DNA of 64,000 nt, from the NCBI GenBank assembly GCA_030390025.1, contig CM059431.1:120902001-120966000 (forward strand). The letters are read 5' to 3'. Of this stretch, positions 2,421 through 51,400 are shown in pieces. A program made the position numbers and the translations under genes. The DNA is from Squalus acanthias (lineage: Eukaryota). The notes below the pieces were generated by a model that was not told the DNA's origin, searched no databases, and saw nothing but the letters and a program-made list of their open reading frames with translations. How positions within the stretch are numbered: position 1 is the first letter of the stretch; each line of letters starts with the position of its first letter.

Positions 2421-2444
2421 CCTGCCTACAATGAGACACAGGAG

Positions 2445-4323: not shown

Positions 4324-5089
4324 ATTAAAGGGATACGGAGCAAAGACAAAATTTCAACTTCAATAGTACCGTGCACCTTTAATACAACCAAGGGCCTGAA
4401 ATTCCTGATCCTGGGAGGGCACCACAGGGGTAAGGACTATGTGGTGGAGTATGTGCAGTTTGTGGTTGATACAGTTTCACCAGGTCTCTGCCCCTTCTCT
4501 GAACTTGGAAAATTCCATCGGAAGTGGGAGCAGGAGTTTCATGCATCTAAACATTCTTTTGTGCTGATGTCAGAAGAAGTGACTGGACTGGCAGGATGAT
4601 GCCACCCAACATAAAATCGTTCAGTTCAGCTTCCTTAGTCCCCAGTACAAAGTACACCTCTATCGTGCAAAGTACAGCTGTGCTTGCATGCTGGGATAAG
4701 GTCCTTGCAGAAGCGAGGCCCACAATGCTGATTCCCGAACAGCTACTGTCAATTCACCATTTATTCTTGTGGAAGTCTCCAATCTAAAGGTGGCATGGTC
4801 CCCTTCCCCAACGCAGCTGGAATTCCTGCCCTGCCACTCCTCCAGGGGCAGAGCAAGGCTCTAGGGACACTGCGCCTCAAATCCCAAAGGACAGAGCATG
4901 TTTTTTCTCCAGCACCCACCTGGACCTGGAAGAGGATATTGGAGGCCAGTATGCCCAGTGAGGTGAGACATGCCAGCATCCACAATGGCGCATATGGGCC
5001 GGCCTGCCCCATGCTAATGAGGTGTCCCTTTGGTGGAGTCAGTGCTGGAGCCAACCGCTAGGTGCAATCTCGTCGGGTGAGTGCGGAGC

Positions 5090-8000
5090 ACCACGGAAGC
5101 GGCCCCAAGCATTTAAACAGCAGCGCGGCAGCGCAGCAGCAGAGAGGGGAAAACAAATACTGATTAAATGTGCAAAAATTTCGTCACAGTCGATGGAGTG
5201 GAGGAGCCTGTGAAAGCCAAGTGATGTCACGGCGAGCACGGAGGAGGAGCTCTGAAGGTGAGTAAATCGGGAGAGTAAAAAGTAAGTAATTTGTTTCTTT
5301 TTAAATAAAAGCAATCTACTTAATTTTAATTCAGGCTATTAATAAACAAATAAATAAAAAAGACTAGAAATGGCAGGGCAGGCTATGTGTTGGGACTGTA
5401 GTATGTGGGAGTTTGTGGACAGCAAGACTGTCCCGGATTCCCACATCTGCAGGAAATGTCTCTGCCTTCAGTCACTCCAACTCAGAGTTGTTGAGCTGGA
5501 GTGCGAGATAGAGACACTCTGACACATAAGGGAGGGGGAAGAATTTCTGGATAGTTATATCCGGAACACAGTCACATGCTAGAGGAAAGCACAGGTTCAG
5601 GAAGAGCAGGGTGTGACTGTGAGGGAGCCAGATGGTGGGGACTTAGGAGAGGTTGGGGAGGAGGTCCTGTCCAACAGGTATGATGTACTCGCTAACTGTG
5701 AGGACAAGGAGAAAGACTGCGGGGAGGACAGCCATAATGCAGTCCAAGGCACTGTGGCTCAGAAGGCTGTCCAAGGGCTGGGGGGTGGGGGAGGGGGGCA
5801 AGAGCAGAATAGAAATGTGGCAGTGATAGGGGATTCTATATTTAGGGGGTTAGATATCATCCTCTGCAGACACGAATGAGAGTCCCGAAAGGTGCATTGC
5901 CTATAGGGTGCCAGGGTAAGGGATATCTCGAGGCGGCTGGAAAGGAATTTGGAAAGCGAGTGGGAAAATCCAGTTGTCCATGTCAGAACAAACAACATAA
6001 TTATGAACAAAGAGGATGTCCTACCAAGGGAGTATCAGGAGTTAGGAGCTAAATTAAAAAACAGGACCTCGAGAGTAATAATCTCTGGATTATTGCTCGA
6101 GACACGTGCAAAAATGACACAGAAACAGACAGATCAGAAGAATTAACCTGTGGCTAAAGGGCTGGCGTGGGAAAGAGGGGTTTCTTTCCATGGGACACTG
6201 GCACCAGTACTGGGACAGGAAGGAGCTGTATCGATGGGTTGGGCTCCGCCTGAACTGGAATAGGACCAGTGTCCTAGTGGAAAGGGTAAATAGGGAGGTG
6301 GCAAAGGCTTTAAACAAGCAAGATGGGAGGAGGGATCTACAAGAAATGAAACAAGCCTAAATATAAACAAAACAGGAAAGGAGAGCATACGACATACTAA
6401 AGGAGGACATACATGGCCAGGGAATAAATAGAGTGAAAGAACAGGAGTGTAAAAAGATGGTTAAAAATAAAGTGAGAGGAACTGCTATTAAAAATGAAGT
6501 GAAACTGTCTGTACAGCAATGCGCACAGTGTCGATAATAAAACAGGGAAACTGGAGACAATAATATGTTGTGAGGAACCAGATATAATAGGGATTACTAA
6601 GCCATGGCTACAGAAAATTCAAGACTGGGAATTAAACATTGCAGGGTGTAACATGTTTAGGAAAGATAGAGAGGGAAAAAGGGGAGGTAGAGTAGCTGTA
6701 CTTATTAGAGATAACATAATGGCAGTAGAAAAAAATGAAGCAGCTATTAGTGAGACAGAAATAGAATTCATCTGGATAGCGATAAAAGATAATAAAGGAT
6801 CAATCACACTAATAAGGGTAGTCTACAGACCATCTAATAGTGGAAGGGAGGTGGAGGAAGAAATATGCAAACAAATTAAGGATATGAGTAAAAACATAGA
6901 ATAATAATCATGGGAGATTTCAACTACCCTGAAATTAATTGGCCAGAAGAGGTAGGTAAAGGGAGTTCCTACAATGTGTACAGGATACTTTTCTAACCTA
7001 GTATGTAAGAAGGCTGCCAAGAGAGGATTCGCTACTGGGGCTAGTAATGGAGAATGAACCAGAGCAGATAAGAGAAGTAAAAGTAAGGGAACATCTCGGC
7101 AATAGTGACCATAATATAATACACTTTAAGATAATAATTGAGAAGGACATAAGTATGGAGAACACCATACATTGGAGAAAAGTCGATTTTGAGGGGCAGA
7201 GAATAGAACTTGCAAAAATAAAATGTACAACAATATTGGCAAACAATAATGTAGAGCAGCAATGGAAAACATTTAAAAAAGTGTTCAACAGAGTTCAGGA
7301 AAAATACATTCCGTTAAAAAGCAAGAACAAATTAAACACGAATGAGACCTCATGGATGAACATAGACATTAGGGAAAAATTGAGGGTAAGGAAAGAGGCA
7401 TTCACTAAGGACATGAACAGCAGGGGAGAGCATGAAAAGGGAGAATACGAAGAGATTAGGAGAGAAGTCAAAAAAACAATTAGGAAGGCAAAGAGGAAGT
7501 GTGAAATTAAATTATTAAGGAACATAAAACAAAATAGGAAAATATTCTCCAGGCACATAAATAAAAGAAAGGAAAGTCAGGATGGAAATAGAGCCACTAA
7601 GGGATGGACAGGATAAAATCACAGGCAGAGATAGTGAAATGCCAGAAATATTACATAATTACTTTGCTTCAGTATTAACATCAGAAGATGAGATTAGAAA
7701 TGATATAACCACATTTAAAGTAAAAAGAGGTAAAATATTAAATAAACTAATCAAACTCAAAGAGAATAAAAGCCCCTGGTCTGGATGGATTATATCGGTG
7801 CATTGTAAAAGAATCTAGGGAGGGATAGCAGAGGCACTATTACACATATTTAATAATTCATTAGAAGAATGTGTAGTTGCTTGATCAACCTCACTGAATT
7901 CTTTGGAGAGGTAACAGAGAGGGTAATGCAGTGGAAGTAATTTATCTAGATTTCCAAAAGGCCTTTGATAAGGTGCTATATAATAGATTAAAGAATAAGG

Positions 8001-8715
8001 TCAGAGCATGCGGAATCAGGGGACTATGGATAACTAGCTGGCTGAAAGACAGACAGCAGAGAGTGGGGTGAAGGGTAGCTATTCAGAGTGGCAGAAGGTG
8101 GGGTCCTACAAGGATCAGTGCTGGGACCACAGTTGTTCAAAATTTATATTAACAATTTAGACTTTGGAACAAAAATACAATTGCAAATTTGTGGATGACA
8201 CCAAATTGAGGGGGGGGGGATAGTCAATACTGAGGAGGATGGCAATAAATTACTCAAAAACATGAATAAACTTGCAGAATGGGCATATAATTAGCAAATG
8301 AATTTCAATACAGATAAGTGTGAGGTATTACATTTTGGTAAGAAAAATAATGAGGTCACATGTTACTTGCAAAATAAGAATCTCAAAAGGGTAGAGGAAC
8401 AAAGGGATCTCAAAGTACAAATACACAATTCACTAAAAGTAGCGACGCAGGTTAATAAGGCCATAAAAAATGCAAACCAAGCACTACAGGTTATTTCTAG
8501 AGGGATAGAATTGAAAAGTAAAGAAGTTATGTTAAACTAGTATCGAACCCTGATTAGACCACACTAGGACCATTTTTGGACTCTAGGTGAATCAAGGGAT
8601 ATGGGGATCGGGCAGGAAAGTGGAGTTGAGGTTGAAGATCAGCCATGATCTTATTGAATGGCGGAGCAGGCTCAGAGGGCCGTATGGCCTACTCCTGCTC
8701 CTAATTCTTATGTTC
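5090..8715 (+). mobile_element. Decayed near full-length CR1 LINE (ORF1 zinc finger/SGNH esterase; ORF2 APE endonuclease and RT) with deletions
   Basis: VAVIGDSIFRG and VVHVRTNN (esterase); RKDREGKRGGRVAVLI, VYRP and HLGNSDHN (APE); MNFNTDKCEVLHFG (RT); CR1 3' tail. Confidence 0.9.
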
Positions 8716-9045
8716 TTAGAAAGTTCCAAAGATTCACAACCCTTTGAGTGAAGACACTTCTCATCTCAGGCCTAAATGGGCGACCCTTTATTCTGAGACT
8801 GTGACCCCTGGTTCTAGACTCCCCAGCCAGGGGAAACATCCTCCCAGCATTTACCCTGTCAAGCCCTTTAAGAATATTATGTTTCAATGAGATCACCTCT
8901 CATTCTTCTAAACTCCAGGGAATATAGGCCTAGTCTACTCAATCTCTCCTCATAGGACAATCACCTTACCCCAGGAATCAGTCCAGTGAATCTTTGTTGC
9001 TCTCCCTCTAAGGCAAGTTTGTCCTTCCCTTGGTACGGAGACCAA

Positions 9046-9729
9046 GGGCAGAATTTTCATTGACCCGTGGAGGTGGGTTTGGAGTCGTGTGGGGGGTTAA
9101 AATTGTGAAAACTGGTGGGCGGGCACAAGCCCGCCTCCATCCCACCTCCACGCAATTTTCATTAAATCGTGTCTGCTGGTCCCAACTCTGTCCTGCCTCT
9201 AAGAGGCGGGATAGGCTGTTAAGGCCCTTAACAAGCACTAAATTGCCTCTATAATGCCATTTTGAAAGGCCTTTGTGATTTTAACCCTTTTTCTATGTAA
9301 AGCACGCCTGTTCTGAACCATGAAAGTGAAACCTGGCGGTAGCACATTTCGAAAGCTGACTATCAGCTGCAGGTCCACTATTACAACGATGATGATGGAT
9401 GATGATGATGATGAGGAGGAGTAGTAGTAGTGGTACAAAAATATCTGGGAGCAGACTTATGGCTGCTGCTGCTCATTTTGCATCCAGGTCCTCTCACAGC
9501 AAAGGCCAGGCAGTCTTTGCAGACCTTCAGTGCAGCAGCAATGATGACATCATCAGAGGCGACTTTTAGACTGAAAACACTAATTGGGTCATGGGTTCCC
9601 ACATGCTGGAACTCAATTGCCCAATTAGGTGAAAGTCGCATCAATCTCCCACATCCAATTGCAGTCGGGTGGATAACACAAAAAGTGGATGACACGACCC
9701 CAACCCGCCCCTGTATCAAAATGCAGCCC
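9046..9729. mobile_element. Harbinger-type MITE copy 1
   Basis: TIRs GGGCAGAATTTT...AAAATGCAGCCC; 3-bp TSD CAA. Confidence 0.75.
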
Positions 9730-36439: not shown

Positions 36440-38210
36440 TTTGGACTGTTTTTTTTAATTTTATTGAAATGGTGGCTTGCTGCAATAGATGTGAAACGTT
36501 TTTTAAGTGTGTAGGGAGTGCTGCTGGATGCTTGCAAGGACTCGGATGGTAAATGAAGGCTTTTGAGAAGACAGAACATGCTGCGAATACTCAGCAGGTC
36601 ACGCAGCATCCGTGGAGAGAGAAACAGAGTACACATCTCAGGTCAACATGCTGCCTGACCAACTGAGTATTTCCAGCATTTTATGCTGTCAATTCACATT
36701 GACAGCATCTGTTTGCAGAGGGAAGAGGAAGACACAGAAGAGGAGGAAGCCGAAGAGGAATCAGACGGAAGAATGCATCCCAGACAGCCCCCTTGTGGCT
36801 GGGTTATCCGGGATGGAATCACCTGCCTGCGGTCCCACTGGCTGGGCAGGCTGCCTCTTCTTGTTGACCCACTGGCTGGGCAGGCTGCATTTCTTGGGTG
36901 TGTGAATGAGAAAGGCACAAGGGTGGAGTTGGGCTGACAGGAGGGCAGGAAAGCAAGAGGTGCATGCCAGAAGGGGGATAACGTACGAGGATACCCGCAT
37001 CTTGTATCCTTTCAGCCCCGCCGCTGGCCAAGGGCTCAACCATGCCCCTGCCAAGAATGGCCTGCATCGTCTCCTCCAAGGGGGTGAGGTGAGGCTAGGA
37101 ATGGGAGATGTGCCTTGTGATTGGTGTAGATTGTTGGTAGGTTAGTGATTGGGGGTTGTGCATTGAGCAGTGTGTGAGGCTCGTGTTGCAGTTGGTAAGA
37201 GACGGCTTTTGAAGATGCATTCACTGACCTTGACCAGTGGTCTGAGGTCAAGAAGCTTCTTTGGGCACTGGAGACAGGTGGTGGGGCAACACTACTGGCA
37301 GTGACAGCCTTGGTGATCTGGTCCCACATCATTCTTTCTGGAGAGCCTCCTGGCCCCTGTGGGTAGAGGGCCGCTCTTGCAGTGTTGACCTCTGCACAAA
37401 GCTGGAGTGCTGCATGTGAGACCTTCGGTGCCCCTTCCCTGGCTTGCTGAGGCATTTGTGTTAGTGCTGAGGCAGTTTTCCCATTTGTTGAGGTTGGGAA
37501 GTTTTTGGATGGGAAACCCAGAAGTAAGGGTTTCCTGGCTGTTCTGCAGAATTTAACTGCAGGGCGTCTTTTACATTTTTTCAGTAGGTGTCCTGGCTGT
37601 CTGTTGGGCGGGAAAGCAGCCGGGGAGTGACTGGCAGGCAAGTAGGAGATCCCGGGGGGGCTGGGGGGGATTGGGGGGAGGTGAGGAGTGTCGGAGATCG
37701 TGGGGGTGGGGGTAGTCAGAGATCGCAGGGGGTCAGAGATCGGGGGCTTCGGGGAGACAGAGAACAGGTTGGGGAGTCGGAGATCGAGTGTGGGGCGGGA
37801 GTCGGAGATCGAGGGGTGGTGGTGGAGGGGGAGTTGGAGATCGTGCAGGGAGAGTCGTAAATCTGGGGTTGTGTAAAGAGGTTAACTCATTGGACCGAGT
37901 GGAAACACTCCTGCTCCTCCTGGCCCACAAGCAGTGCTGTAAATGCACTTACCTCATGGATCTGGCCCTTCGCGCATCCTTTTACCACCCTGGTTTCCCA
38001 ATAAAAAAGCCTGTTAAAATAGAGGCACACAGCTTCCACTGACTGACTCGCATCCTGAGAGCGGATTGGTGGCCTACCCCCTGGCCCACCTTCCTTAAAA
38101 CTGGAAATGAGTGAGATTGAGGCGAGTTGGGGTCGTGTTTGAGATTTTTAAAAATTTACTTCCCTCCCACCCACAACCCACCCATCCTTGGTGTTAAACC
38201 TACCCACATG
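36440..38210 (-). mobile_element. Harbinger element remnant with Myb/SANT-like ORF and short GGAGATCG repeat
   Basis: Peptide APKVSHAALQL...MMWDQITKAVTASS; similar to 28480-29530. Confidence 0.6.
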
Positions 38211-38363
38211 GATTAAGTAAAGTCATCAATATTTGATAATAAACTGACGATAGTAACTGCACCTCGTTGTGTTATGGAATTTTCAACCCACACCACTACC
38301 TCTTCATCTCCCTCTATTCCTTCAAGATCCTCCTTAAAGCCCAACTCTTTGACCAAGCCCCTT

Positions 38364-40011
38364 TGTAAGGGATTCTGACCCTGCGTGTCTCGCAGCCTGT
38401 GAGATTCACGCGGCTCTGTGCAGCCTGTATGTCAGTGCGGGTCTAGGCCTTGTTGCCTGTTCTGGTCTCCAGCCAGTCTGGGAACACTAGACACACCTGT
38501 GAGTGGTTCGAATCACTCGCCCTTACGGTTCTAGACACTGGACTTAGATGCGAGAGCAGTAATGGAGATGAAACTCATGTAGACTCGGTTGAATGGTACG
38601 AAATGGAAAATCTTTATTGCATGATACTTAAGATTATGAAATACATGTCATAAGCACAGATTAATGACAGTACAATCTTACAAGCAGTTATATAGTCGAT
38701 CTTAGGGAAACGAGGAACGAACGGCACATAGTAAATAGGGGCACACATTACAAATATCCTTAATCCTTAAACCCTCCCCTATCAATATCTATCCTAAACT
38801 AGATTCGTAGGATTTCGAGACTCATGCTCACCACTCGTGATAACTCGGAGAAATTCCGAATAGCTGATCGGATGTTTTTCACCGCAGCACCCACGTGTCG
38901 GTCAGGAGATCTCCTGGTCCCACTTGTTTACTTGCTTCTGCTGCTCCGGCTAGCAGGCTGGAACGTCTGCTGTGATGAAGACCTGTGTTGGTTGGTTTAA
39001 CAGGTACTTTTCGAGCACAGTTGTCAATATCCTCGATACGATATGTTTCCTTGCAAGTTCGAAGAAGTCTTCCTGGCAAGGAAAACTTGGCTAATTCGAC
39101 CTACAGGCGCGGTCGGGATTTACTGACCGTGGCGATGGATATGGTCTTCCTCTCTTCTCATCTCATCTCATCTCATCTCATCTCATCTCGGGCCTTTGGT
39201 TCCGCTGCCAGTTACCAACATAGGTCTTCGTTACGCGACACGAGGTAGATCCGAACGGATCAGAAAGTTCAACAGTCCTTTTCAAAGAGGCAACAGGCAA
39301 GCAGGAGCCCAACTACGAGTACACAGGAGCAGCCACGAGGTTACGAATAAGAGCACAGGAGCAGCCACGATGATAAGAAAAAGATGGACGGTTTGGAGCC
39401 TGCAATTATAGTGCAAAATCTTCCGTTTCCCGCCCAACTATAATGTCCATTCTTTTGTTTAGGGTCTGGCGCTCAAATGTCTTGTATGGGTGATCTCCGT
39501 TCTTAATGGGTTTCGGGGCTACTCGTAAATGTCTGAGTACCTGTTAATATTTCTCCCATTGTTAAATCGGTCGGTGTTCTCCCTGGAGGGGTTGTGGGGC
39601 TTCCAAGTGTTTTGTATAACTACCTGCTAACGGCTCTCTCATCGTAGAGTCGTTGGGATTTTACATATTAATGTCTTTTGGATGGGCCCTTGATTACTCG
39701 GTACAATAGCTTTCATTTGTACCTGGGAGACCGATTTCAGTATTTATGTGTATACTGCAAACCCATAATGTCTCGTGTATTATCTTCACTGTGCTGAATC
39801 TTAATCGATCTTGCACAAATGTTTATTGGAACGCCATCTTGTCTGCCTGTTGAAAAGTCTAGAATGTTCTGTCACGAGGTGCGGCGGCCATTTTACAGGC
39901 TGCTTGTGTCCACTTTAAACCTGGCAGCATTCTGCTGAAATAAAAGCTGTTTGAACGAAACTCTGTGTTTTCTCCTTATTAATAAAATCGCGATATATTG
40001 CGAATTCTACA
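38364..40011 (-). repeat. 3' LTR (1648 bp)
   Basis: Differs from the other LTR at only 2 positions I could see (38753 A / 46485 G; 39097 C / 46829 T). Preceded on minus by a purine tract. Confidence 0.97.
38613..38618 (-). terminator. Candidate polyadenylation signal AATAAA in 3' LTR
   Basis: Plus strand tttatt, about 250 nt from the LTR end. Confidence 0.5.
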
Positions 40012-40022
40012 GTCCCTCCTGT
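40012..40022 (-). promoter_or_regulatory. Polypurine tract (plus-strand primer)
   Basis: Minus strand ACAGGAGGGAC lies immediately before the TGT of the 3' LTR. Confidence 0.7.
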
Positions 40023-40464
40023 TGATGCGAATAACTCCGCTTATCGTATCAAAAATCATAGTGGTGAGCAATATTATCTCGATTTCTCTCCGAATCCAGC
40101 AAATTAATCCCATAAATTTTAACCTAGCTAGGGTCTCTGTGTCGTCCTTATTTCCCAAGAAAATTACATTTTATATCACCGTAGGCATTATTTGCCCTTA
40201 AACTTACACCACTTGTTTTCCTTCCCGGCGTAACCAGGCCGATGTCTCTCGTATCACCTGTATATTCATCTTTTATTCAGGGAAAGGAAAAACAAAACTC
40301 AAAACCAAAACAATCAATTCTAACTGTAACACCATCACCAAAATAATCAACACCAACTCTTAAAACATGTCGAGTTCCCAACGTATTTACAATCTCTGAA
40401 AAATCATGATCGAGTACAAACTTCCGCGACGCACGTGGCGAGCGGGAGTGACGCCATTTTCCGA

Positions 40465-42816
40465 TTACACGGTGCTTTCATCGTGCACGCGCACGTAACG
40501 TTCTCGCCACTCTCCCGTGTTTTCATGCTTGGTGAGGCGCTTGTCTCTTTTACAATGTACGACCAATAGGTACACTACAATAAAAACTTGGCATACGACT
40601 AAAATGTGGGAGGCTATTCTGATCCATGAAGGCACTTCAATATTAGTGAACAGATTCCACCACGGTGGAACTACTATATCCAAAATGTCTGTTCCTATTT
40701 CGACAGTTTTCTGCTCTAATGTGTAAAAATGTTTCTGTGACACCGCGACGGCTTTCAGAAGCTTGGTGAGGTGTACAGGGAGAGGGGGAATGAGGTATCC
40801 GAAATGCGCGACGAATCGCTGCAAGTCGGTGAAATTCTCTTTTACTGTGAGATGAACAGTGGATGGTTCAGGGATTGGGATAATTCGCTGTTGTGCTACT
40901 TGAACTTCCGCCCTGGGTTTGAAACAGAAACTGCTGTCACTCACCGGACACCAGCTACGGTTTCCATGCTGGTAGTGTTGTGCTGCAGTGGTAACACAAT
41001 ATGTTCCACCCCCGATGTATGCTACCTGCGGAGGCACATGATCTTGTGCCATTGCCTCCATGGTGCAATTCATGGACTTGGCGCCAGCCGTTCTGAACCC
41101 GCACTGTGGTGTTAAAAAGGCATTCAAGTGCTGGGGACACAGTATTATGTGTGCTGCCCTGCCACGACAACCAGAGAGATCTGTACCTGTCATCGTTTGC
41201 TCCCAGCGGATGACGTAAGGTGGAACCGCTGCATAACGAATGTGGGCTCCCCCCTGAATGACACCAATGTTCTCTACCCGATACACCGGGGCGGGCTTTG
41301 CTGTGTCGCCCAAAACCGGCATGCGTAATACTATTCCCATAATAGTATGGTTTGAACGTCCGCAGTCCACGGGGACTGGGTAAGCTTCTGAAGCTAGCCT
41401 GAGCTGGCACGGACTTAATGCGTTCTGAAAAGGGTGGAGCGCCCGCAGGTGTTTGTTATTTATCCAGGACGGAACCAAACCTTGTTTTAAATCCTCCAAA
41501 TTACTGCGGCCCTCGCCCAGTAACCACGCCCCGTAAAGCACGCACACCTCGTTCTGCGCAGCTTGATCGGATGCATTCCGATCTTCCCTAATCAGGGCAT
41601 TTACCGTCTTTGCATGTTTCTCCAACTCTGCTATAATTTCCTTTAAATGGAGAGTCATGGCTTGGTCCTCGTGTAAACCCGACCCTACCACTTTATTCTC
41701 ATCTGTTAGAATGTCTTTTAATTGTGTCTTTAAACCATTAATCTGGGTCTGCAGCTCCACACTGTCTAGAGCGTTGACCACAGATGTACCCGTGTTAAAA
41801 GCGGTGAACGCATCGTTCACCAAACCCCTTCTTTGCCTCCCTGCTTGATTCAAAACTTCCTGTGGTGCGGTGTACAAACTTGTTTTATCAATTTCCGCGA
41901 AATCGAATTCGTAAAATTGTCTGAACATCTTGGTCAACAGGACCTGGTACAACTGTTCCGTCTTTTTGGGGCACCACTCTGGTAACCGCACCTCGGTGAG
42001 ATTTAAAATCACCGAGGCCACCGCGTAATGTACCCCCTGAAATAGTATCTGGTCTGTGGGGACCAGTACCAAACCATTCCCGGGTCCCTTACTAGTTTTA
42101 GGGCACCCTTCTTCCTCAGCTAGAACCACCGGAATCGTGGGCGGGGCTTTGCGTGGGCGCGTAATGAGCTCAGTGGCATTTACTGGGATCGGGGAGAATG
42201 GGGCTCCGCACCCCCTGGTGCTCGCATCCCACCTCATCCCCTGTCCGTTATCCTGCCATTGATTAATGAAAAATATGGAGATGCCTTTGGGGCAAACGTA
42301 CTTTGACCCCCACATACATACATAAATTCCCTCATCCGGTTCCCACCATTTGTCCCAACAGACTTTCACTTGTCCGTTTGTCCCCGTAATTGTCCGATGG
42401 GTATTATTACCCAGTCGTTCCCACTCGACCGAAGAGTTCCTCATAGTTTTGCTCAGCTTTCGCAGCCACCACCATCGGCTCAATGGGACCTTCCCACTAC
42501 AAGTCAAACAAATCCGTTTGCCGACGGTGACGCTGATCCTGGGTGCGATGATCCTTACTTTGGGGCACAGTAAAGAAGTCTCTTTGTAGGCAAACCCCGA
42601 TGTGCTAGAATACTCCGTTGAGTTCGTTCCCAGCCATCCTGGCCACCTTCCCTTGTGGAAATAGGTGCTGGTCTCCTCTGCCTCCCGTCTTCCGGTCCCA
42701 TCCACCGCGATGGGGGCCGTGTCCCCGGAACATCCAAACACCACGACATCCTTGGTGCGGCCTCGATAGGCCAATCCACATCCGATTGCCACGAGCAATA
42801 CTAGAATTCGTTCCAT
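40465..42816 (-). CDS. env: Envelope glycoprotein (783 aa from likely start MERILVLL): signal peptide, Ig-like domain, furin site RQRR, fusion peptide and heptad repeat, Cys-rich region, TM anchor
   Basis: Hydrophobic signal MERILVLLVAIGCGLA. RQRR|GLVND at 41827-41838. About 10 N-x-S/T sequons. TM IASHILVVCQVFIVVYLLVV and a YVRV tail motif. The frame is open further upstream to 42999. Confidence 0.9.
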   Translation of the reverse strand: MERILVLLVAIGCGLAYRGRTKDVVVFGCSGDTAPIAVDGTGRREAEETSTYFHKGRWPGWLGTNSTEYSSTSGFAYKETSLLCPKVRIIAPRISVTVGKRICLTCSGKVPLSRWWWLRKLSKTMRNSSVEWERLGNNTHRTITGTNGQVKVCWDKWWEPDEGIYVCMWGSKYVCPKGISIFFINQWQDNGQGMRWDASTRGCGAPFSPIPVNATELITRPRKAPPTIPVVLAEEEGCPKTSKGPGNGLVLVPTDQILFQGVHYAVASVILNLTEVRLPEWCPKKTEQLYQVLLTKMFRQFYEFDFAEIDKTSLYTAPQEVLNQAGRQRRGLVNDAFTAFNTGTSVVNALDSVELQTQINGLKTQLKDILTDENKVVGSGLHEDQAMTLHLKEIIAELEKHAKTVNALIREDRNASDQAAQNEVCVLYGAWLLGEGRSNLEDLKQGLVPSWINNKHLRALHPFQNALSPCQLRLASEAYPVPVDCGRSNHTIMGIVLRMPVLGDTAKPAPVYRVENIGVIQGGAHIRYAAVPPYVIRWEQTMTGTDLSGCRGRAAHIILCPQHLNAFLTPQCGFRTAGAKSMNCTMEAMAQDHVPPQVAYIGGGTYCVTTAAQHYQHGNRSWCPVSDSSFCFKPRAEVQVAQQRIIPIPEPSTVHLTVKENFTDLQRFVAHFGYLIPPLPVHLTKLLKAVAVSQKHFYTLEQKTVEIGTDILDIVVPPWWNLFTNIEVPSWIRIASHILVVCQVFIVVYLLVVHCKRDKRLTKHENTGEWRERYVRVHDESTV

Positions 42817-42828
42817 CCTTCCTTGGTT

Positions 42829-42856
42829 CCTGTGATCAGATAGAATGAGGTAGCCA
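42829..42856 (-). promoter_or_regulatory. Candidate splice acceptor for env mRNA
   Basis: Minus strand ctacctcattctatctgatcacag|gaacc ends 13 nt before the env signal-peptide ATG. Confidence 0.5.
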
Positions 42857-43105
42857 GCCTCGCAAGAGTCTCTGGCTTTTGTGAAGGGTGAGCGGGTCCC
42901 CTGACCTCGCCTCACGTAAACTTCCACGTTCGCTGTATAAACTTTAACTAAACCTAAATTTACAGCTCCCATCATTTTATCGTTTTCTGTTAAAAACACT
43001 ACAAACTTAACCTTATTAAAAAACTATAAACTTAACCTTGAACTATTAACTTAAAACTTAAAAACTAATAACTTTACAGTGCCGCCCGTTCTCAGGGCGG
43101 CCCCT

Positions 43106-44266
43106 TTAAATTCTGAGAAGGCTGCTGCGAGCTCTTCCCGACGGTGGGAGGGCACTGACCCTTCCCTCTGATCTGCCGCAGCCTGTTGCTGCACTGACCC
43201 TTCCCTCTGATCTGCCGCAGCCTGTTGCTGCTGCGATGTGGCCGGCCTGTATCTGGGTTATCTTAACCTTAACTCTACGCCTTGGGGCAGTCTGGGGACA
43301 TGACCACATCCTCCTGGGCTGGGGTTCTCTACTTGACCTACGGGGAGTTGCTATGGGCGGGGGTTCCGTGACGGACGGACCGGGTTCCGAGACTTCCATC
43401 GGGATGACCTGGGGTTCCACCACAGTCGCTGGCTCCGCCTCCGCTGACTCCGCCTCCCTAACCTCGGGGCTTGCAGTTTGTGGCTCCGCCCTGCTCGGCC
43501 CAGCAGGCGGCCCTTCACTCGTGATCTCTGCCTCCCCCAAGGACGGGACGTTCAAAGCGGGCGGCCACATCTCTGGGAGCCACACCGGTACTCTCTGTGC
43601 TCCCATAGCGGCTGGCCCTGCCTCCCCTAGCTCCTCCCTCCTGTCTTCGGGACCTGCAGCTCGTGTGTCCACCCTGTGTGGATCTCTACCTGCAGCCCCC
43701 GTCCCCTCCATATCGTAAAAGGGACCGTTCCTCCGAAACCACCCGTCGTCATCACTATCCTCATCTGCACTATCCTCATCTGACCCGGGTACCCTGAATT
43801 CTTCCTCATCTAACCCCCAATTCCAGAAAAACGCTGCATGATCGTCCGGGATGTCCCTTCCCCTGATGCAAGCTGCTATGCCTGCCTGTGTGCCTTGTGG
43901 TCCTACCTGGGGCTGTGCTTTCCCACTGGCGGGATTTACCCCTGTAGTTTTCCCTTGCGCACCTGGCTGGTACAGTTTGCATTGGTTTACATCCTCATAC
44001 TCCCGGCTTTTGGCTACCCTGTAGACTGCTTTTATCTCACTAAGCTGCGCTTCTAGCCTGAGCACGTCTAACTTTCCCATTGATCGGGCGTTCTCCTCCC
44101 GCAGGGCCTGCTCTCTAAGCTGCCCTTCCAGCCCATCTATTTTCCCTATTAAGCGGGCGTTCTCCTCCCGCAAGGCCTGCTCTTTTAACCTGGCCTCCTC
44201 ACCGCAGACCCCCTCCTGTGCGTGTCTTTTAAAAGGACACAGGTAGGCAGGCTGCGTGGGCTCTAG
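43106..44266 (-). CDS. ORF X: unknown ~386-codon frame in phase with the NC ORF after its TGA (coiled coil, acidic tract, Pro/Glu-rich tail)
   Basis: The 31 sense codons between the TGA at 44267-44269 and the listed ORF start at 44173 are open and in frame. No ATG near its 5' end. No DTG/DSG, YxDD or HHCC motifs. Confidence 0.65.
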   Translation of the reverse strand, partial: LEPTQPAYLCPFKRHAQEGVCGEEARLKEQALREENARLIGKIDGLEGQLREQALREENARSMGKLDVLRLEAQLSEIKAVYRVAKSREYEDVNQCKLYQPGAQGKTTGVNPASGKAQPQVGPQGTQAGIAACIRGRDIPDDHAAFFWNWGLDEEEFRVPGSDEDSADEDSDDDGWFRRNGPFYDMEGTGAAGRDPHRVDTRAAGPEDRREELGEAGPAAMGAQRVPVWLPEMWPPALNVPSLGEAEITSEGPPAGPSRAEPQTASPEVREAESAEAEPATVVEPQVIPMEVSEPGPSVTEPPPIATPRRSSREPQPRRMWSCPQTAPRRRVKVKITQIQAGHIAAATGCGRSEGRVSAATGCGRSEGRVSALPPSGRARSSLLRI

Positions 44267-44626
44267 TCATTGGGTACTATTAGACGGTCCTGCGGCACCT
44301 ACGGGGCCGGTTGCGACCGCCACCTGTCCACGTGCACTCAAGATTAGATTGCGCATGGCTCCTAACACTACTTCGACGTCGTCGGGAGGGGTGGGTGCCT
44401 TAGCTTCCTTAGCCGGGACAGGCGCCTGGGCTCGGACCGCGGGATTTTTATCCTTGGAATCCTTCCAAGGGTTCCTGCAATGCTTGCGCCAGTGCCCTGT
44501 CTTCCCACACCCGTAACAAGCATTACCTGCCTGTGGGGCGCGATTACCCTCCTGATGCCACTCTCTTTGATACGGGGCTGCGGGTCGTACCTCATGTACT
44601 CTTCCCTTAAGGGGACGTGTTGCCAT
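44267..44626 (-). CDS. gag: Gag C-terminal nucleocapsid portion with CCHC zinc knuckle, in +1 frame relative to upstream gag
   Basis: CYGCGKTGHWRKHC (C-X2-C-X4-H-X4-C) at 44477-44518. Overlaps the end of the gag ORF by 20 nt. Confidence 0.88.
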   Translation of the reverse strand: MATRPLKGRVHEVRPAAPYQREWHQEGNRAPQAGNACYGCGKTGHWRKHCRNPWKDSKDKNPAVRAQAPVPAKEAKAPTPPDDVEVVLGAMRNLILSARGQVAVATGPVGAAGPSNSTQ

Positions 44627-46091
44627 ACCCCTTATATTGCGATATCCTAACGTGAGTCAAGACCGACTCTTCCGTAATGTTGGGGTCATTGGGAATGTTG
44701 GGGTCATTGGGATCAAACCATGCTTTTGCCTGCTCTCTGACGGCTGGTAAACTGTTGGCTATTATGCACCTAAGCCAATGAGTTAAAGCTAAGCCTTCCA
44801 CATCTTCGCGCTCGGGCGCACCTGGACAGCTGCGCTCATATACTGGCCACAGCCTGTCGGCAAAAACCTTCGGGGGTTCTCCCTCCATCTGCACTGTCTG
44901 TCCCACTCTAGCAAACGGACCTTCATCGTTCGCCCCCAACACTTCCAGGACCTCATTCTTTAATTCCTCATAACTCTTGGTTCCCCTCTTGCTCTCGCCT
45001 GAGAGACACTGAAGGACCGAGCTGTCTAATGAGAACAGCAGCATTTTTGCTGTTTCCCCATCATCGCAGCCGTTAATGGCTGCGGCTTGCTCAACTTCTC
45101 TGAAATGTACGGAAGGGTCGTCTGACTCGGTCAGCTTCCGTACGTGATTTATCATAGCTCTCAGCTGATGTGAACTGTGAGGCAGCACCAGCTGTCCGAG
45201 GAGATCCCCCGGCTCTTCCCCACCGTTTCTGCTTGGACCCCTTTTAATACCCGTTACTGGATACAACGGTCCCTTTCCTACTTCTTTTTCAATGGGCTCT
45301 TTCGTTTCTTCCATTGCTTCCTCCCTTACCCAGGTTTCCGAATAGCTGGGTGGCGCGGAGGGCGCAGTGGCTACTACTTCTTCTGCTTTACTTGGTGGGG
45401 ATTTTTTAAACTTCTCACTTGCTAGCGGCTGGTGTGCTGACGGACTGATCAGGCACACCATGCCGTTCGCTTTGTTTACGGCCTTCTTGAGGTGCTCTAT
45501 CTCCCTTTGGCAGGCGCTATGGTCGGCTCCCTCAAACTTATCCTCAAGGGCCAACTTATATGCCGCCCTAACCCCCGTTAAGCTCTCTTCTTGAGTTCTT
45601 ATCTGGGCAGCTTGGCGGTTACATCTTTCCTTTAATCTGCTCTCATTCAACTTCGCCTCAGTGACCTGGCACTCGAGATAATCTATCCTTGTTTTAAGGT
45701 GACTGGAGACTGCCTGGCTTTCTTGGTGCAACTCATTTAAATTCTTAATGAGCACCTCCCCTCCAGAAACCTTCTCATCCATTTCTCCCTCTAAATGACT
45801 GATTCGAGCTACTAGCGCTGTAATGGTCTGGTTTGAAATCTGAACCTGCCTTTTGTAACACATAAGCCAGACTGCTTTCTCAAGTGTCTTTCTATGTTCT
45901 TTACTATCTGTCCACCTTTCGGCTGCCTCTAGCGGGCTTTTATCCGCTAACAATTCACTTATCCACTTCTTAGTTAGATTAACCTTTCCGAACACATAAT
46001 CTGCTATCTTTTCCTGCATAACATTTCGTACAGTCATTCCAAAGTCTAACACACTACCCTCTCGCTGCCAGTGTCCTGCCGCGGTCGCCAT
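44607..46091 (-). CDS. gag: Gag (494 aa; N-terminal domain, long coiled coil, PSAPPSY late-domain motif, capsid-like helical region)
   Basis: First ORF after the PBS, with its ATG overlapping the PBS. Heptad-rich segment; APSAPPSY at 45342-45362; a CCHC knuckle follows in the adjacent frame. Confidence 0.85.
   Translation of the reverse strand: MATAAGHWQREGSVLDFGMTVRNVMQEKIADYVFGKVNLTKKWISELLADKSPLEAAERWTDSKEHRKTLEKAVWLMCYKRQVQISNQTITALVARISHLEGEMDEKVSGGEVLIKNLNELHQESQAVSSHLKTRIDYLECQVTEAKLNESRLKERCNRQAAQIRTQEESLTGVRAAYKLALEDKFEGADHSACQREIEHLKKAVNKANGMVCLISPSAHQPLASEKFKKSPPSKAEEVVATAPSAPPSYSETWVREEAMEETKEPIEKEVGKGPLYPVTGIKRGPSRNGGEEPGDLLGQLVLPHSSHQLRAMINHVRKLTESDDPSVHFREVEQAAAINGCDDGETAKMLLFSLDSSVLQCLSGESKRGTKSYEELKNEVLEVLGANDEGPFARVGQTVQMEGEPPKVFADRLWPVYERSCPGAPEREDVEGLALTHWLRCIIANSLPAVREQAKAWFDPNDPNIPNDPNITEESVLTHVRISQYKGYGNTSP
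46073..46090 (-). promoter_or_regulatory. Primer-binding site complementary to tRNA-Arg(TCG) 3' end
   Basis: Minus strand TGGCGACCGCGGCAGGAC lies 5 nt after the 5' LTR. It is the complement of ...GTCCTGCCGCGGTCG-CCA, which I recall as the 3' end of vertebrate tRNA-Arg-TCG. Confidence 0.88.
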
Positions 46092-46095
46092 TTTC

Positions 46096-47743
46096 TGTAA
46101 GGGATTCTGACCCTGCGTGTCTCGCAGCCTGTGAGATTCACGCGGCTCTGTGCAGCCTGTATGTCAGTGCGGGTCTAGGCCTTGTTGCCTGTTCTGGTCT
46201 CCAGCCAGTCTGGGAACACTAGACACACCTGTGAGTGGTTCGAATCACTCGCCCTTACGGTTCTAGACACTGGACTTAGATGCGAGAGCAGTAATGGAGA
46301 TGAAACTCATGTAGACTCGGTTGAATGGTACGAAATGGAAAATCTTTATTGCATGATACTTAAGATTATGAAATACATGTCATAAGCACAGATTAATGAC
46401 AGTACAATCTTACAAGCAGTTATATAGTCGATCTTAGGGAAACGAGGAACGAACGGCACATAGTAAATAGGGGCACACATTACAGATATCCTTAATCCTT
46501 AAACCCTCCCCTATCAATATCTATCCTAAACTAGATTCGTAGGATTTCGAGACTCATGCTCACCACTCGTGATAACTCGGAGAAATTCCGAATAGCTGAT
46601 CGGATGTTTTTCACCGCAGCACCCACGTGTCGGTCAGGAGATCTCCTGGTCCCACTTGTTTACTTGCTTCTGCTGCTCCGGCTAGCAGGCTGGAACGTCT
46701 GCTGTGATGAAGACCTGTGTTGGTTGGTTTAACAGGTACTTTTCGAGCACAGTTGTCAATATCCTCGATACGATATGTTTCCTTGCAAGTTCGAAGAAGT
46801 CTTCCTGGCAAGGAAAACTTGGCTAATTTGACCTACAGGCGCGGTCGGGATTTACTGACCGTGGCGATGGATATGGTCTTCCTCTCTTCTCATCTCATCT
46901 CATCTCATCTCATCTCATCTCGGGCCTTTGGTTCCGCTGCCAGTTACCAACATAGGTCTTCGTTACGCGACACGAGGTAGATCCGAACGGATCAGAAAGT
47001 TCAACAGTCCTTTTCAAAGAGGCAACAGGCAAGCAGGAGCCCAACTACGAGTACACAGGAGCAGCCACGAGGTTACGAATAAGAGCACAGGAGCAGCCAC
47101 GATGATAAGAAAAAGATGGACGGTTTGGAGCCTGCAATTATAGTGCAAAATCTTCCGTTTCCCGCCCAACTATAATGTCCATTCTTTTGTTTAGGGTCTG
47201 GCGCTCAAATGTCTTGTATGGGTGATCTCCGTTCTTAATGGGTTTCGGGGCTACTCGTAAATGTCTGAGTACCTGTTAATATTTCTCCCATTGTTAAATC
47301 GGTCGGTGTTCTCCCTGGAGGGGTTGTGGGGCTTCCAAGTGTTTTGTATAACTACCTGCTAACGGCTCTCTCATCGTAGAGTCGTTGGGATTTTACATAT
47401 TAATGTCTTTTGGATGGGCCCTTGATTACTCGGTACAATAGCTTTCATTTGTACCTGGGAGACCGATTTCAGTATTTATGTGTATACTGCAAACCCATAA
47501 TGTCTCGTGTATTATCTTCACTGTGCTGAATCTTAATCGATCTTGCACAAATGTTTATTGGAACGCCATCTTGTCTGCCTGTTGAAAAGTCTAGAATGTT
47601 CTGTCACGAGGTGCGGCGGCCATTTTACAGGCTGCTTGTGTCCACTTTAAACCTGGCAGCATTCTGCTGAAATAAAAGCTGTTTGAACGAAACTCTGTGT
47701 TTTCTCCTTATTAATAAAATCGCGATATATTGCGAATTCTACA
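46096..47743 (-). repeat. 5' LTR (1648 bp)
   Basis: Direct repeat of 38364-40011 at offset 7732. On minus it reads TGTAGAA...CTTACA and is followed by GAAAA and the PBS. Confidence 0.97.
47130..47170 (-). promoter_or_regulatory. Candidate LTR promoter (GC/E2F-like box TGGGCGGGAAA plus TATAAT)
   Basis: Minus strand gttgggcgggaaacgg...gcactataattgca, followed about 25 nt later by a pyrimidine-rich start-like sequence. A second TATA candidate, TATATAA, lies near 46420. Confidence 0.4.
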
Positions 47744-48470
47744 CCTTCTAATATCTTCTTTGGTTGGTCACCAATTTTGTTATGGTTACGCCTTTGCAAA
47801 GCACATTGGGCCATTTTTCTATCTTAACGGCGCTATATAAATGCGAGGTGTTCTTGCTCTGGCGTGGTGGGAGGCTGGTTTGAGTACATAATTCACCACA
47901 TGGTAAACGAATGATTTCAGCTGTACTGCTGCAGAAGTATGCACATATCCAGAGAAGAGCACAATCTATCAATTGTTAAAAATCCAGGGACTTGTACATG
48001 GCTGGAGTCAAGAGTTCAACCATTTGTGCCAGCTGTGAAAATACTAATTCATGCTGCAATTAAGATAAATTGAGAGAAGTACTGAGAATTAAGACAGCAT
48101 AGAAAATTGGCACTTGAAAATACTTCCCAGTGATCTCTTGAACAAGGCCAACTGCAGCAAGCTGACCATCTGCTCCCATCAGTGGAATTGCTGCTGTGGA
48201 AGTTAAATTCTAATGGGGCACGAAGAGAAGGCTGTTCTCATCCTATCTGTAACTATCTCTTGTGAAAAATTAACCTCCCGCCCCCATGCCTTGAAATAGT
48301 GATTCCAGCAGAATGGCCCTAATATTTACTCAGGACGTGAAGAGAGCAGGCGGGGTGGGGCTGGGGGAAGATTTCCAGACAGGAAACCCAGAAGTAAAGA
48401 GTTTCACGGACATCCTGCTGAACTTTTTCAGAGATCAGGGTGGTGTGGGAGCTGGCAAACAGTGATAGAT

Positions 48471-51400
48471 GGAGTCGGAGATCGGGGGTGGAGGGGGAGA
48501 TCGGGGGTGAGTCGGAGATGGAGGGGGGATTCGGAGATCGAGGGGGGATTCGGAGACCGAGGGGGGAGTCGGAGATCGCGGGGGAGTCGGAGATCGGGGG
48601 GGAGTCGGAGATCGAGGGTGGCAGTCGGAGATCGAGGGTGGAGTCGGAGATCGAGGGTGGAGTCGGAGATCGAGGGTGGTGTCGGAGATCGAGGGTGGAG
48701 TCGGAGATCGATGGTGGAGTCGGAGATCGAGGGGGTGTCGGAGATCGGGGGGGTGTCAGAGAACGGGTAGGAGGGGGAGATCGGGGGTGGAGGGTGAGAT
48801 CGAGGGGCAGTCGGAGATCGGGGACAGTTGGAGATCGAGGGGCAGTCGGAGATCGGGGGAGGGGAGATCGAGGGGGGAGTCGGAGATCGAGGGGGGAGTC
48901 AGAGATCGGGGTGGAGGGGAGATCGAGGGGGGAGTCGGAGATCGAGGGGGGAGTCGGAGATCGAGGGGAGGAGTCGGAGATCGAGGCGGGAGTCGGAGAT
49001 CAGGGGGGAGTCGGAGATCGAGGGGGGAGATCGAGGGGGGTGTCGGAGATCGAGGGTGTAGTCGGAGATCGATGGTGGAGTCGAAGATCGAGGGGGGTGT
49101 CGGAGATCGGGGGGGTGTCAGAGATCGGGTAGGAGGGGGAGATCGAGGGTGAGATCGAGGGGCAGTCGGAGATCGAGGGGCAGTCGGAGATCGGGGACAG
49201 TTGGAGATCGAGGGGCAGTCGGAGATCGGGGGGAGGGGAGATCGCGGGGGGAGTCGGAGATCGAGGGTGGAGGGGGTGATCGAGGGTGGAGGGGGTGATC
49301 GAGGGGGGAGGGGGAGATCGAGGGGGGAGGGGGAGATCGTGGGGGGAGTCGGAGATCGGGGGGCTGTCGGAGATCGAGGGGAGGAGTCGGAGATCGAGTG
49401 GGAGAGTCGGAGATTGAGGGAGGAGTCGGAGATCGAGGGTGGAGTCGGAGATCGGGGGGGAGGGAGAGATCGGGTGGCTGTCGGATATCGAGGGTGGAAT
49501 CGGAGATCGAGGGGGGAGTTGGAGATCGAGGGGGGAGAGGGAGATCGGGGAGATTCGGAGATCGAGGGGAGAGGGGGAGATCGAGGGTGGAGTCGGAGAT
49601 CGGGGGGGGAGGGAGAGATCGGGTGGCTGTCGGATATCGAGGGTGGAATCGGAGATCGAGGGGGGAGTTGGAGATCGAGGGGGGAGAGGGAGATCGGGGA
49701 GATTCGGAGATCGAGGGGAGATCGGGGGGAGTCGGAGATCAAGGGGGGAGTCGGAGATCGAGGGGGGAGGGGGAGATCAAGGGGGGAAGGGGAGATCGGG
49801 GGGAAGTCGGAGATCGAGGGGAGATCGGGGGAAGTCGGAGATCAAGGGGGGAGTCGGAGATCGAGGGGGGAGGGGGAGATCGAGGGGGGAGTCGGAGATC
49901 GAGGGGGGAGGGGGAGATTGAGGGGGGAGGGGGAGATCGAGGGGGGAGTCGGAGACCGAGCGGGGAATCGGAGATCGAGGGGGGAGGGGGAGATCGAGGG
50001 GGAGGGGCAGATCGAGGGGGGAGTCGGAGATCGAGGGGGGAGTCGGAGATCGAGGGGGGAGTCGGAAAACGAGGGGTGAGGGGGAGATCGGGGGCGAGTT
50101 GGAGATTGAGGGGCGAGTCGGAGATTGAGGGGCGAGTCGGAGATCGAGGGGGGAGTCGGAGATCGAGGGTGGAGTCGGAGATTGAGGGGGGGAGTCGGAG
50201 ATCGAGGGTGGAGTCAGAGATCGAGGGGGGGAGTCGGAGATCGGGGGGGAATCGGAGATCGAGGGGGGGAGTCGGAGATCGGGGGGGAGGGAGAAATCGG
50301 GTGGCTGTCGGAGATTGAGGGTGGAATCGGAGATCGAGGGGGGTGTTGGAGATCGAGGGGGGAGGGGGAGATCGGGGGGCATCGGAGATCAAGGGGGGAG
50401 GGGGAGATCGAGGGTGGAGTCGGAGATCAGGGAGGAGGGGGAGATCGGGGGCTGTCGGAGATCGAGGGTGGAATCGGAGATCGAGGGGGGAGTTGGAGAT
50501 CGAGGGGGGAGAGGGAGATCGGGGGGATTCGGAGATCGAGGGGGGAGGGGGAGATCGGGGGGAGGGGAGATCGGGGGGAGTCGGAGATCGAGGGGGGAGG
50601 GGGAGATTGCGGGGGGTGAATCGGAGATCGAGGGGGGAAGGGGAGATAGAGGGGGGAGTCGGAGATTGAGGGGGGAGTCGGAGATCGAGGGGAGGAGTTG
50701 GAGATCGAGGGGGGAGGGGGAGATCGAGGATGGAGTCGGAGATCGAGGGGGGAGGGGGAGATCGAGGATGGAGTCGGAGATCGAGGGGGAAGGGGAGATC
50801 GAGGGGGGAGTCGGAGATCGAGGGGGGAGTCGGAGATCGAAGGGAGGAGTCGGAGATCGAGGGGGGGAGTCGGAGATTGAGGTGGGAGGCTGAGATCAAG
50901 GGGGGAGTCAGAGATTGGGGGCGAGTCGGAGATCGGGGGTGAGGGGGAGATCGAGGGGGGAGGGGTAGATTGGGGGGGAGTCGGAAATCGAGGGGGGAGG
51001 GGGAAATCGGGGGGGAGTCGGAGATCAAAGGGGGAGTCGGAGATCGAGGGGGGAGGGGGAGATCGAGGGAAGTCGGAGATCGGGGGGGAGTCAGAGATCT
51101 GGGGGGAGTCGGAGATCGAGGGGGGGAGTCGGAGATCGAGGGGGGGAGTCGGAGATCGAGGGGCGAGTCGGAGATCGAGGGGGGGAGTCGGAGATCGAGG
51201 GTGGAGGGGGAGATCGAGGGGAGTCGGAGATCGAGGGGTGATGGGGAGATCGAGGGCGGAGTTGGAGATCGGGGGGGAGTCGGAGATCGAGGGGGAAGTC
51301 GAAGATCGAGGGGGGAGGGGGAGATCGAGGGGGGAGGGGGAGATCGAGGGGGGAAGGGGAGATCGAGGGGGGAGTCGGAGGTCGAGGGGGCAGTCGGAGA

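Follow-up and report, generated by a model that had tools for sequence, protein, structure and literature searches.

A high-copy pol-less endogenous retrovirus subfamily in Squalus acanthias, probably mobilised in trans by its full-length siblings

Internally deleted endogenous retroviruses (ERVs) that are mobilised in trans are known from mammals, where IAP I-delta-1, ETn/MusD, deleted HERV-H and VL30 serve as examples. In these systems, the derivative has the long terminal repeats (LTRs), the primer binding site (PBS) and the polypurine tract (PPT) of an autonomous relative, occurs in high copy number and is flanked by normal target site duplications (TSDs). The same is found for the element described here, a provirus at positions 38364-47743 of a 64,000-nucleotide window from Squalus acanthias (NCBI GenBank assembly GCA_030390025.1, contig CM059431.1, positions 120,902,001 to 120,966,000, forward strand). 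The window is the whole stretch of DNA that was analysed; all feature positions refer to it, and all genes of the provirus lie on its minus strand. The provirus is very probably a recent insertion of a high-copy, pol-deleted subfamily that was mobilised in trans by full-length, pol-bearing siblings. The family, characterised by an F-like Env, comprises roughly 3300 young proviruses, one third of which are devoid of every replication enzyme and yet have gag and env. The architecture, the copy numbers, the independent insertions, the common cis elements, the open helper genes, the selection on coding sequences and the mosaicism of short (pol-less) and long (pol-bearing) copies were observed directly.

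Architecture of the pol-less provirus and its pol-bearing siblings

The provirus is bounded by two LTRs of 1648 bp with TG...CA ends, the 5' LTR at 46096-47743 and the 3' LTR at 38364-40011 (both minus strand). They align to each other without gaps and with only two mismatches, at LTR positions 390 and 734, and their identity extends 0 bases past either LTR end. The 4-bp TSD CCTT is located at 47744-47747 on the upstream side and at 38360-38363 on the downstream side in the sense of the element. The PBS TGGCGACCGCGGCAGGAC (46073-46090, minus strand) starts 5 bases past the 5' LTR and is complementary at 18 of 18 positions to the 3' end of tRNA-Arg(TCG) plus CCA, its complement corresponding to the last 15 nt of the tRNA gene followed by CCA. 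The PPT AACAGGAGGGAC (40012-40023, minus strand) adjoins the 3' LTR. The interior spans 6084 bp, and its four open reading frames (ORFs) have no Pfam match to a protease, reverse transcriptase (RT), RNase H or integrase. The sole Pfam match in these ORFs is a zinc knuckle (zf-CCHC, E 0.014), which at 15.9 bits stays under the cut-off of 20.8. Each element of the architecture given in the first-pass annotation was thereby confirmed, from the LTR length and the CCTT duplication to the 18-nt PBS, the PPT and the pol-less interior, and the two mismatches in 1648 positions agree with its claim that the copy is recent. According to a supplementary table of PMC7947760, a distance of 0.003 corresponds to 0.68 million years. 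At the rate implied by this value, the copy would be about 0.3 million years old, or older if elasmobranch rates are slower.

The tRNA 3' pattern that matches the PBS has 435 occurrences in the genome (reversed control: 0), and ARAGORN annotates tRNA-Arg(tcg) in both of the two scanned loci holding it. The matching tRNA-Arg(TCG) gene occurs in huge tandem arrays in which the unit recurs every ~1623 bp (contig C26, ~38.99-41.88 Mb), and tRNA-Ser(GCT) is located in the same repeat unit.

Relatives of the provirus were searched in the 3.7-Gb assembly containing the window. The LTR yielded 3613 first-look candidates, and all 40 that were scored matched (42 rows), full-length matches being 98-100% identical. 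Among those 40, 12 LTR pairs were found, five of them spaced 7.64-7.73 kb (this locus included) and seven spaced 11.03-11.18 kb. Four further short copies and six long copies were fetched in this way. All four short copies are colinear with the element at this locus across both junctions. All six long copies align at element positions 1-3509 and 3755-9380 with 97-99% identity; between these two segments, they contain about 3620 bp in place of the 247 bp found here. In a long copy, a gag gene of 604 codons ends in TGA and is followed in the same frame by a pol gene of 1511 codons, so that gag and pol are separated by an in-frame stop as first proposed. The encoded Pol comprises the domains RVP, RVT_1, RT_RNaseH_2 (tether), RNase_H, Integrase_H2C2 and rve, with RT_RNaseH_2/RT_RNaseH at residues 469-601, RNase_H at residues 649-792 and about 290 codons beyond the integrase. 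Of the six long copies, four have an open gag (including its nucleocapsid part, NC), two an open pol and four an open env; all three genes are open in two. A pol-bearing relative with the same LTR ends, PBS and PPT, which the first reading had suggested looking for, is thus present, with pol still open in two of six copies. A 5-kb contig from a public run (P0052) also encodes a Pol sequence 88% identical over the whole query, which indicates a close relative of the family outside this assembly.

In the short form, the gag stop is directly followed by an in-frame ORF of 386 codons (ORF X, 43106-44266, minus strand), which constitutes a Gag-deltaPol readthrough frame. ORF X had been listed as an extra gene. 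It consists of the first 12 pol codons, 82 codons of a 247-bp insert that is specific to the pol-less form (43989-44235, minus strand) and a remnant of the C-terminal Pol tail (43106-43988, minus strand). The insert takes the place of about 3620 bp of pol; it codes for a coiled-coil-like repeat with an internal duplication at 77% identity. It has no match in a full-length sibling (blastn with word size 7, tblastx) or elsewhere in the window (blastn), and a search of the ESM Atlas for its origin returned nothing at 0.9 or above. ORF X as a whole has no Pfam match. The tail lies downstream of the integrase in Pol, is rich in Ala, Pro, Gly, Arg and Glu, and makes up the C-terminal three quarters of ORF X; at the DNA level it is 98-99% identical to the Pol tail of the siblings. 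An alignment of ORF X to decayed pol had initially been held to speak against helper dependence. Such an alignment exists for the tail, the insert is foreign, and helper dependence stands unrefuted by it. A 39-bp in-frame tandem duplication in the Pol tail is polymorphic in both forms (one of five short and three of six long copies). A variant that skips 58 nt just past the insert (43928-43985) is found on one contig each in runs X7, X10 and X15 (three of four runs); in such a variant, the Pol tail would no longer be in frame with the insert.

The gag frame of this copy (44607-46091, minus strand) encodes a coiled coil at the N-terminus and a capsid-like part of helical character, and ends early owing to a 5-bp deletion. 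Its true start is probably a later ATG than the listed one because the latter overlaps the PBS. The nucleocapsid part (44267-44626, minus strand) contains one CCHC zinc knuckle, is in another frame here and terminates with TGA at 44267-44269, followed by CTAG. Intact gag in sibling copies has 604 codons and covers both parts, which were previously described as separate and are one gene, split at this locus by the deletion. The 5-bp deletion is found in two of 21 copies, and a private 18-bp insertion close to it in one of 21. The stop context TGA-CTAG, which would promote readthrough, is common to the pol-less and pol-bearing forms. Directly ahead of the left junction, 129 bp are only 93.8% identical between the two forms, and all eight fixed short-versus-long differences in gag lie in the last ~100 bp before it. 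The central segment therefore probably derives from a more distant relative.

Copy number, independent insertion and mosaicism

Junctions were counted with 24-nt patterns, allowing up to two mismatches and using reversed patterns as control. The left junction of the pol-less form is present in 1107 genomic places and that of the pol-bearing form in 2190 (reversed controls: 0 in both cases). For the right pol-less junction, 411 places were obtained (reversed controls: 1 and 1); here, polymorphic sites put common variants at the two-mismatch limit. Both pol-less patterns are found within two mismatches in all 16 sampled copies or partial stretches. The 247-bp insert yielded 1293 first-look candidates; all 40 that were scored are 99.6-100% identical and the scored matches are distributed over at least 26 contigs. 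The locus is thus one of about 1100 copies and no rare candidate.

Fifteen pol-less copies were read in all: this locus, four picked by likeness of the LTR and ten by likeness of the insert. Twelve of them have their own perfect 4-bp TSD in unrelated flanks; all six long copies likewise have 4-bp duplications. Together with the common junctions, this identifies the pol-less architecture as that of a transposed family, as had been supposed. Two of the fifteen are located in head-to-tail arrays sharing LTRs (L014, C5:146.88 Mb; L043, C16:85.78 Mb) and one is truncated. The two LTRs of a copy differ by 1-11 mismatches over ~1640 positions in short copies and by 0-6 in long copies. Twelve of the 14 other short copies have an identical PBS, whereas L015 shows several differences and L037 one; the PPT is identical in 14 of 14 other short copies having a 3' LTR, which L045 lacks. 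One pol-less copy (L041, C11:41.48 Mb) has two LTRs of just ~1379 bp that differ by two mismatches; the deletion within the LTR therefore predates that integration.

Near-identical words of this stretch are present in further sequencing runs (24 listed, from four organisms and seven studies), none of which is on record as RNA; among the contigs of four runs that were compared, no env splice joint was seen. The left pol-less junction is spanned by a contig from the run of another organism (X10), with 0 differences over 207 bases. An assembly artefact was rejected as the origin of the junction, which is found on no fewer than 26 contigs and also in sequencing runs from other organisms. A provirus derived from a spliced transcript was likewise rejected, as the junction holds a foreign insert and no clean exon join.

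Over the Pol tail and env, there are 0 fixed differences between the two forms, and nearest neighbours cross forms. Both forms are present in two LTR sublineages, and identical junctions are found on backbones up to 10% apart. Among the best 40 matches of the second LTR type, which was taken from a short copy picked for its insert, three pairs are spaced about 7.7 kb, two about 11.07 kb and four otherwise. Short copies picked for a near-identical insert have LTRs just 90-97% identical to those of this locus and tails down to 77-88% identical. Within the first 92 codons of ORF X, in turn, only 0.2% synonymous differences are found among short copies. One junction on several backbones is what would be expected from template switching between co-packaged short and long RNAs, and points to such events. 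This mosaicism is the main, though indirect, support for a helper relationship between the two forms.

Selection and mobilisation in trans

Among the 15 short copies, the complete gag-NC frame is open in nine, ORF X in 13 and env in 11, and all three frames are open together in four; at this locus, ORF X and env are open. Selection was tested with pooled Nei-Gojobori proportions (pN/pS, the ratio of nonsynonymous to synonymous proportions), a form of the dN/dS check across copies that the first reading had called for. For gag, pN/pS is 0.25 over 105 short-short pairs and 0.14 over 15 long-long pairs. Similarly, values of 0.14 (91 short-short pairs) and 0.17 (15 long-long pairs) were obtained for env. 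For the Pol tail, all comparisons lie between 0.85 and 1.21, and a cruder tally of shared versus singleton variants agrees with this pattern. gag and env are under purifying selection, and the Pol tail evolves neutrally, with no constraint at the protein level. The tail may be kept owing to RNA signals ahead of env. Synonymous differences between copies amount to 4-9%, far above the divergence of LTR pairs; most of them therefore arose during replication under selection.

In the subfamily, about 3.6 kb of coding sequence for protease, RT, RNase H and integrase have given way to the foreign 247-bp segment, which is fused in frame to a dispensable Pol tail; retained are both LTRs, the primer site for tRNA-Arg, the leader, gag and its stop codon together with the readthrough context, env and the PPT. 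A mechanism compatible with these observations can be outlined as follows. Pol-less transcripts would be packaged into particles from cells that also express full-length siblings, whose Gag-Pol would provide the protease, RT and integrase needed within these particles. Reverse transcription of the short genome would then proceed from the common PBS and PPT, and integration would leave the 4-bp duplication usual for the family. In particles containing both RNAs, template switching by RT could transfer the pol-less junction onto several LTR, gag and env backbones. Spread may have occurred at least partly by Env-mediated re-infection of germline cells, which is suggested because env is under purifying selection.

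Other explanations were weighed against this one. A full-length provirus that integrated here and later lost pol by a private deletion would fit the single locus taken alone, all the more as ORF X does hold the 3' tail of pol. This was named at the outset as a possible refutation, and it is ruled out for practical purposes by the recurrence of the same two junctions and the 247-bp insert in 16 of 16 checked copies or partial stretches and at 1107 places, with own TSDs in 12 of 15. More room, if still very little, is left for host co-option of the retained genes as restriction factors or fusogens, in which case the selection would reflect a host function. The low pN/pS in gag and env and the open env in 11 of 15 short copies could be read in this way. 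Co-option, however, concerns one or a few loci, whereas here there are about 1100 young insertions whose LTRs and TSDs are intact, all three frames are open in only four of 15 copies, and gag is broken in the present one, which makes it very improbable.

It is also improbable that multiplication of the pol-less copies took place chiefly at the DNA level, through segmental or tandem duplication or unequal recombination between LTRs. The two head-to-tail arrays and several insert matches about 7.7 kb apart are of the kind that such multiplication would produce. The 12 copies with perfect 4-bp duplications, in contrast, have unique flanks, their LTR pairs differ by 1-9 mismatches (7 to 18 differences with gaps in L015, L016 and L037), LTRs of different copies are up to 10% apart, and copies lie on 26 or more contigs. 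Mobilisation by RT and integrase from an unrelated element family is unlikely as well. Nothing speaks for it directly; the 129 bp of 93.8% identity before the junction, together with the foreign insert, do indicate that another lineage contributed sequence. The LTR ends, PBS, PPT, leader, gag and env, however, are common to the pol-bearing siblings at 97-99% identity, the TSD has 4 bp in both forms, and both forms are present within each of two LTR sublineages, as would be expected if they had recombined repeatedly with these siblings.

Mobilisation in trans by full-length siblings is therefore favoured, and several points weigh against it. Packaging, the supply of Pol in trans and the route of re-infection are inferred from sequence. 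This copy has a frameshifted gag and encodes no complete Gag of its own. Some of the amplification is DNA-level duplication, as shown by the tandem arrays that hold two of 15 copies. The short copies that were sampled are biased toward relatives of this locus, and the two junction counts of the pol-less form disagree (1107 versus 411), so that structural sub-variants exist and both figures are approximate. As the two forms recombine, selection acting on gag and env of short copies is not cleanly distinguishable from that experienced while these genes were part of full-length genomes, and it is not assignable to the short lineage only.

A more far-reaching reading is possible but doubtful: the pol-less form might be a long-lived 'satellite retrovirus' and no dead-end deletion mutant, circulating alongside several sublineages of helpers and repeatedly exchanging LTR, gag and env with these by co-packaging. 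Its own coat and entry genes would be selected, and it would express a Gag-readthrough protein, composed of the insert and the Pol tail, that competes for or tunes helper particles. If so, living elasmobranchs may harbour the system in an active state to this day, and it would represent an env-bearing family reaching thousands of copies.

Env, locus surroundings and comparison with known systems

The env gene (40465-42975, minus strand) is uninterrupted and has 836 codons. The protein has an N-terminal hydrophobic anchor and a Cys-rich, beta-rich, F-like core at residues ~296-708. RQRR at residues 380-383 (~41827-41838) is followed by a hydrophobic stretch and a long heptad helix; a second helix and then a membrane anchor at ~785-809 follow. 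No CX6CC motif is found in Env. A model built from 22 sequences has a mean predicted local distance difference test score (pLDDT) of 55, with residues 290-360 and 470-700 mostly above 70. In a Foldseek comparison of this model with the PDB, paramyxovirus and pneumovirus F rank on top (human parainfluenza virus 3 F, 1ztm: E 1.4e-11, TM(target) 0.53). A Foldseek-independent search with VIA returned Newcastle disease virus F with a Z score of 12.2 (328 residues aligned, root mean square deviation (rmsd) 18.0), parainfluenza virus 5 F with 9.7, and the F proteins of human metapneumovirus and respiratory syncytial virus with 9.2-9.3 (rmsd 5.6-5.9 over 280 residues). Foamy-virus Env follows with Z 8.1-8.4 (257-275 residues aligned), and 12 of the top 13 rows are paramyxo- or pneumovirus F or foamy Env. 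Within the moderate confidence of the model, Env is thus predicted to fold like paramyxovirus F and foamy-virus Env. The F-type Env named in the first-pass annotation is borne out by this predicted fold in both searches and by the cleavage site, the heptad helix and the anchor. At the sequence level, PF00523 has no match in Env at E up to 1 or in 13 homologues at E up to 0.01, and searches of Env against the PDB by phmmer and with a 22-sequence profile gave nothing below E 0.05.

Relatives of Env are found in other elasmobranchs, namely in the skate Rhinoraja (76% identity), the sawshark Pristiophorus (59%) and the sharks Mustelus (32%), Heterodontus (31%), Chiloscyllium (28%) and Scyliorhinus (24%), as well as in the anurans Pelodytes, Xenopus and Mantella (19-21%). 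That the nearest named relatives of Env and Gag come from a skate and sharks is indirect evidence of a cartilaginous fish as host, which the first reading had named. For Gag, the sole relative found is a skate protein of 51% identity, which carries PF00098; an AlphaFold model of Gag from three sequences reached a mean pLDDT of only 40. Weak immunoglobulin (Ig)-like signals are present at Env residues ~140-225 (~42300-42560; Pfam Ig_3, E 0.42; junctional adhesion molecule and antibody variable light domain in the PDB, E 1.3). This region is modelled as a run of beta strands at low confidence, and one shark homologue is named 'Ig-like domain-containing protein'. Inside env, an alternative frame of 166 codons without stop (40955-41455, minus strand) is open in 12 of 12 copies whose ORF lists gave it, which may simply reflect youth and base composition.

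The surroundings of the insertion differ on the two sides. The left flank (37900-38243) is a very high-copy repeat with a summed contig depth of about 36000 in one run (X2), and the right flank (47876-48200) is single-copy with a depth of 4. As to insertion polymorphism, two contig joints that skip about 9.46 kb (38352>47824 and 38358>47814) have only 21-29 letters on their short side and do not match the exact empty site. Just downstream of the provirus, at 48485-49988, there is a tandem array with a 19-bp period and 30 copies of a 124-nt register. It has stop-free stretches in several frames, and long multi-frame ORFs extend to ~52400.

The lineage of the family was assessed from the Pol of the siblings. 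Against the PDB, Ty3 (245 bits), the RT of xenotropic murine leukemia virus-related virus/murine leukemia virus (XMRV/MLV; 236 bits) and foamy-virus protease-RT (218 bits) score about equally, and the best match of the integrase is that of prototype foamy virus. The closest named Pol sequences, with 37-44% identity as compared to ~31% for gamma-type Pols, belong to anurans, Xenopus tropicalis, a turtle and the coelacanth. In a quick maximum likelihood tree, built without lokiretrovirus, spumavirus or class II references, Pol clusters with its counterparts from anurans, turtle and coelacanth (SH-aLRT 93-96) and falls outside the clade of gamma-type sequences. A gamma-type (class I) retrovirus was rejected, as there is no CX6CC and the MLV-type integrase C-terminal domain PF18697 is absent from the sibling Pol by Pfam and carried by class I matches. 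The in-frame stop between gag and pol is common to gamma-type retroviruses and the present family. Foamy viruses have a Gag without a Cys-His knuckle and produce Pol from its own mRNA, not fused to Gag. A spumaretrovirus-like ERV was rejected, as Gag of the present family has a CCHC knuckle and pol is in frame right behind the gag stop.

A lokiretrovirus-like placement appears most likely, if only by a modest preference. Lokiretroviruses, as far as described in the parts of PMC7947760 consulted, have the order LTR-gag-pol-env, a tether plus RNase H and an F-related Env, all of which are found here; the dual RNase H is present in pol of the full-length sibling. The hosts listed there include amphibians, turtles and lobe-finned fishes, and X. 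tropicalis and Latimeria are flagged as positive in the supplement, that is, the same host groups that hold the closest named Pol relatives of the present family. Cartilaginous fishes are unmentioned in the main texts of PMC7947760 and PMC9040795, as far as consulted. In contrast to lokiretroviruses, Env here has no PF00523 match by sequence and resembles F by predicted fold only. As in the F-like Env described here, core domains I-III of foamy-virus gp130 (PDB 8RM0/8RM1) fold like paramyxovirus F, and extra receptor-binding material in the N-terminal subunit is a further likeness, according to the sections of PMC11468914 consulted; Env here nevertheless scores higher against paramyxovirus F (Z up to 12.2) than against foamy Env. 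The analysis supplies a gag-pol-env context for a poorly described retroviral lineage common to elasmobranchs and amphibians.

As a natural system, the two forms could inform on how defective genomes persist beside their helpers in the germline, how often co-packaged retroviral genomes recombine, and what role a paramyxovirus-F-type Env has in a retrovirus of an early-branching vertebrate. A pol-less genome with gag/env-derived genes that is packaged and reverse-transcribed with the enzymes of a helper and recombines with it, as proposed here, is known from Friend spleen focus-forming virus (SFFV) and its helper, Friend murine leukemia virus (F-MuLV). Such laboratory or field complexes, however, are somatic and pathogenic, with altered env or captured oncogenes, whereas the elements described here constitute a germline family of about a thousand copies in which no captured host gene was recognised.

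Among the mammalian deleted ERVs, IAP I-delta-1 is similar in that its deletion likewise creates a new fusion frame. The mammalian elements, in contrast, have lost env (ETn and VL30 all genes), whereas gag and env are kept and constrained here. The deletion is, moreover, bridged by a foreign coding insert of 247 bp, and the helper family itself, with its roughly 2200 copies, has retained env. Extensive proliferation of ERVs generally goes along with the loss of env, as Magiorkinis et al. reportedly found in 2012. Non-autonomous ERVs as such are known; unusual in the present family are the constraint on gag and env at a thousand-copy scale, the F-type Env and the occurrence of one junction on several backbones.

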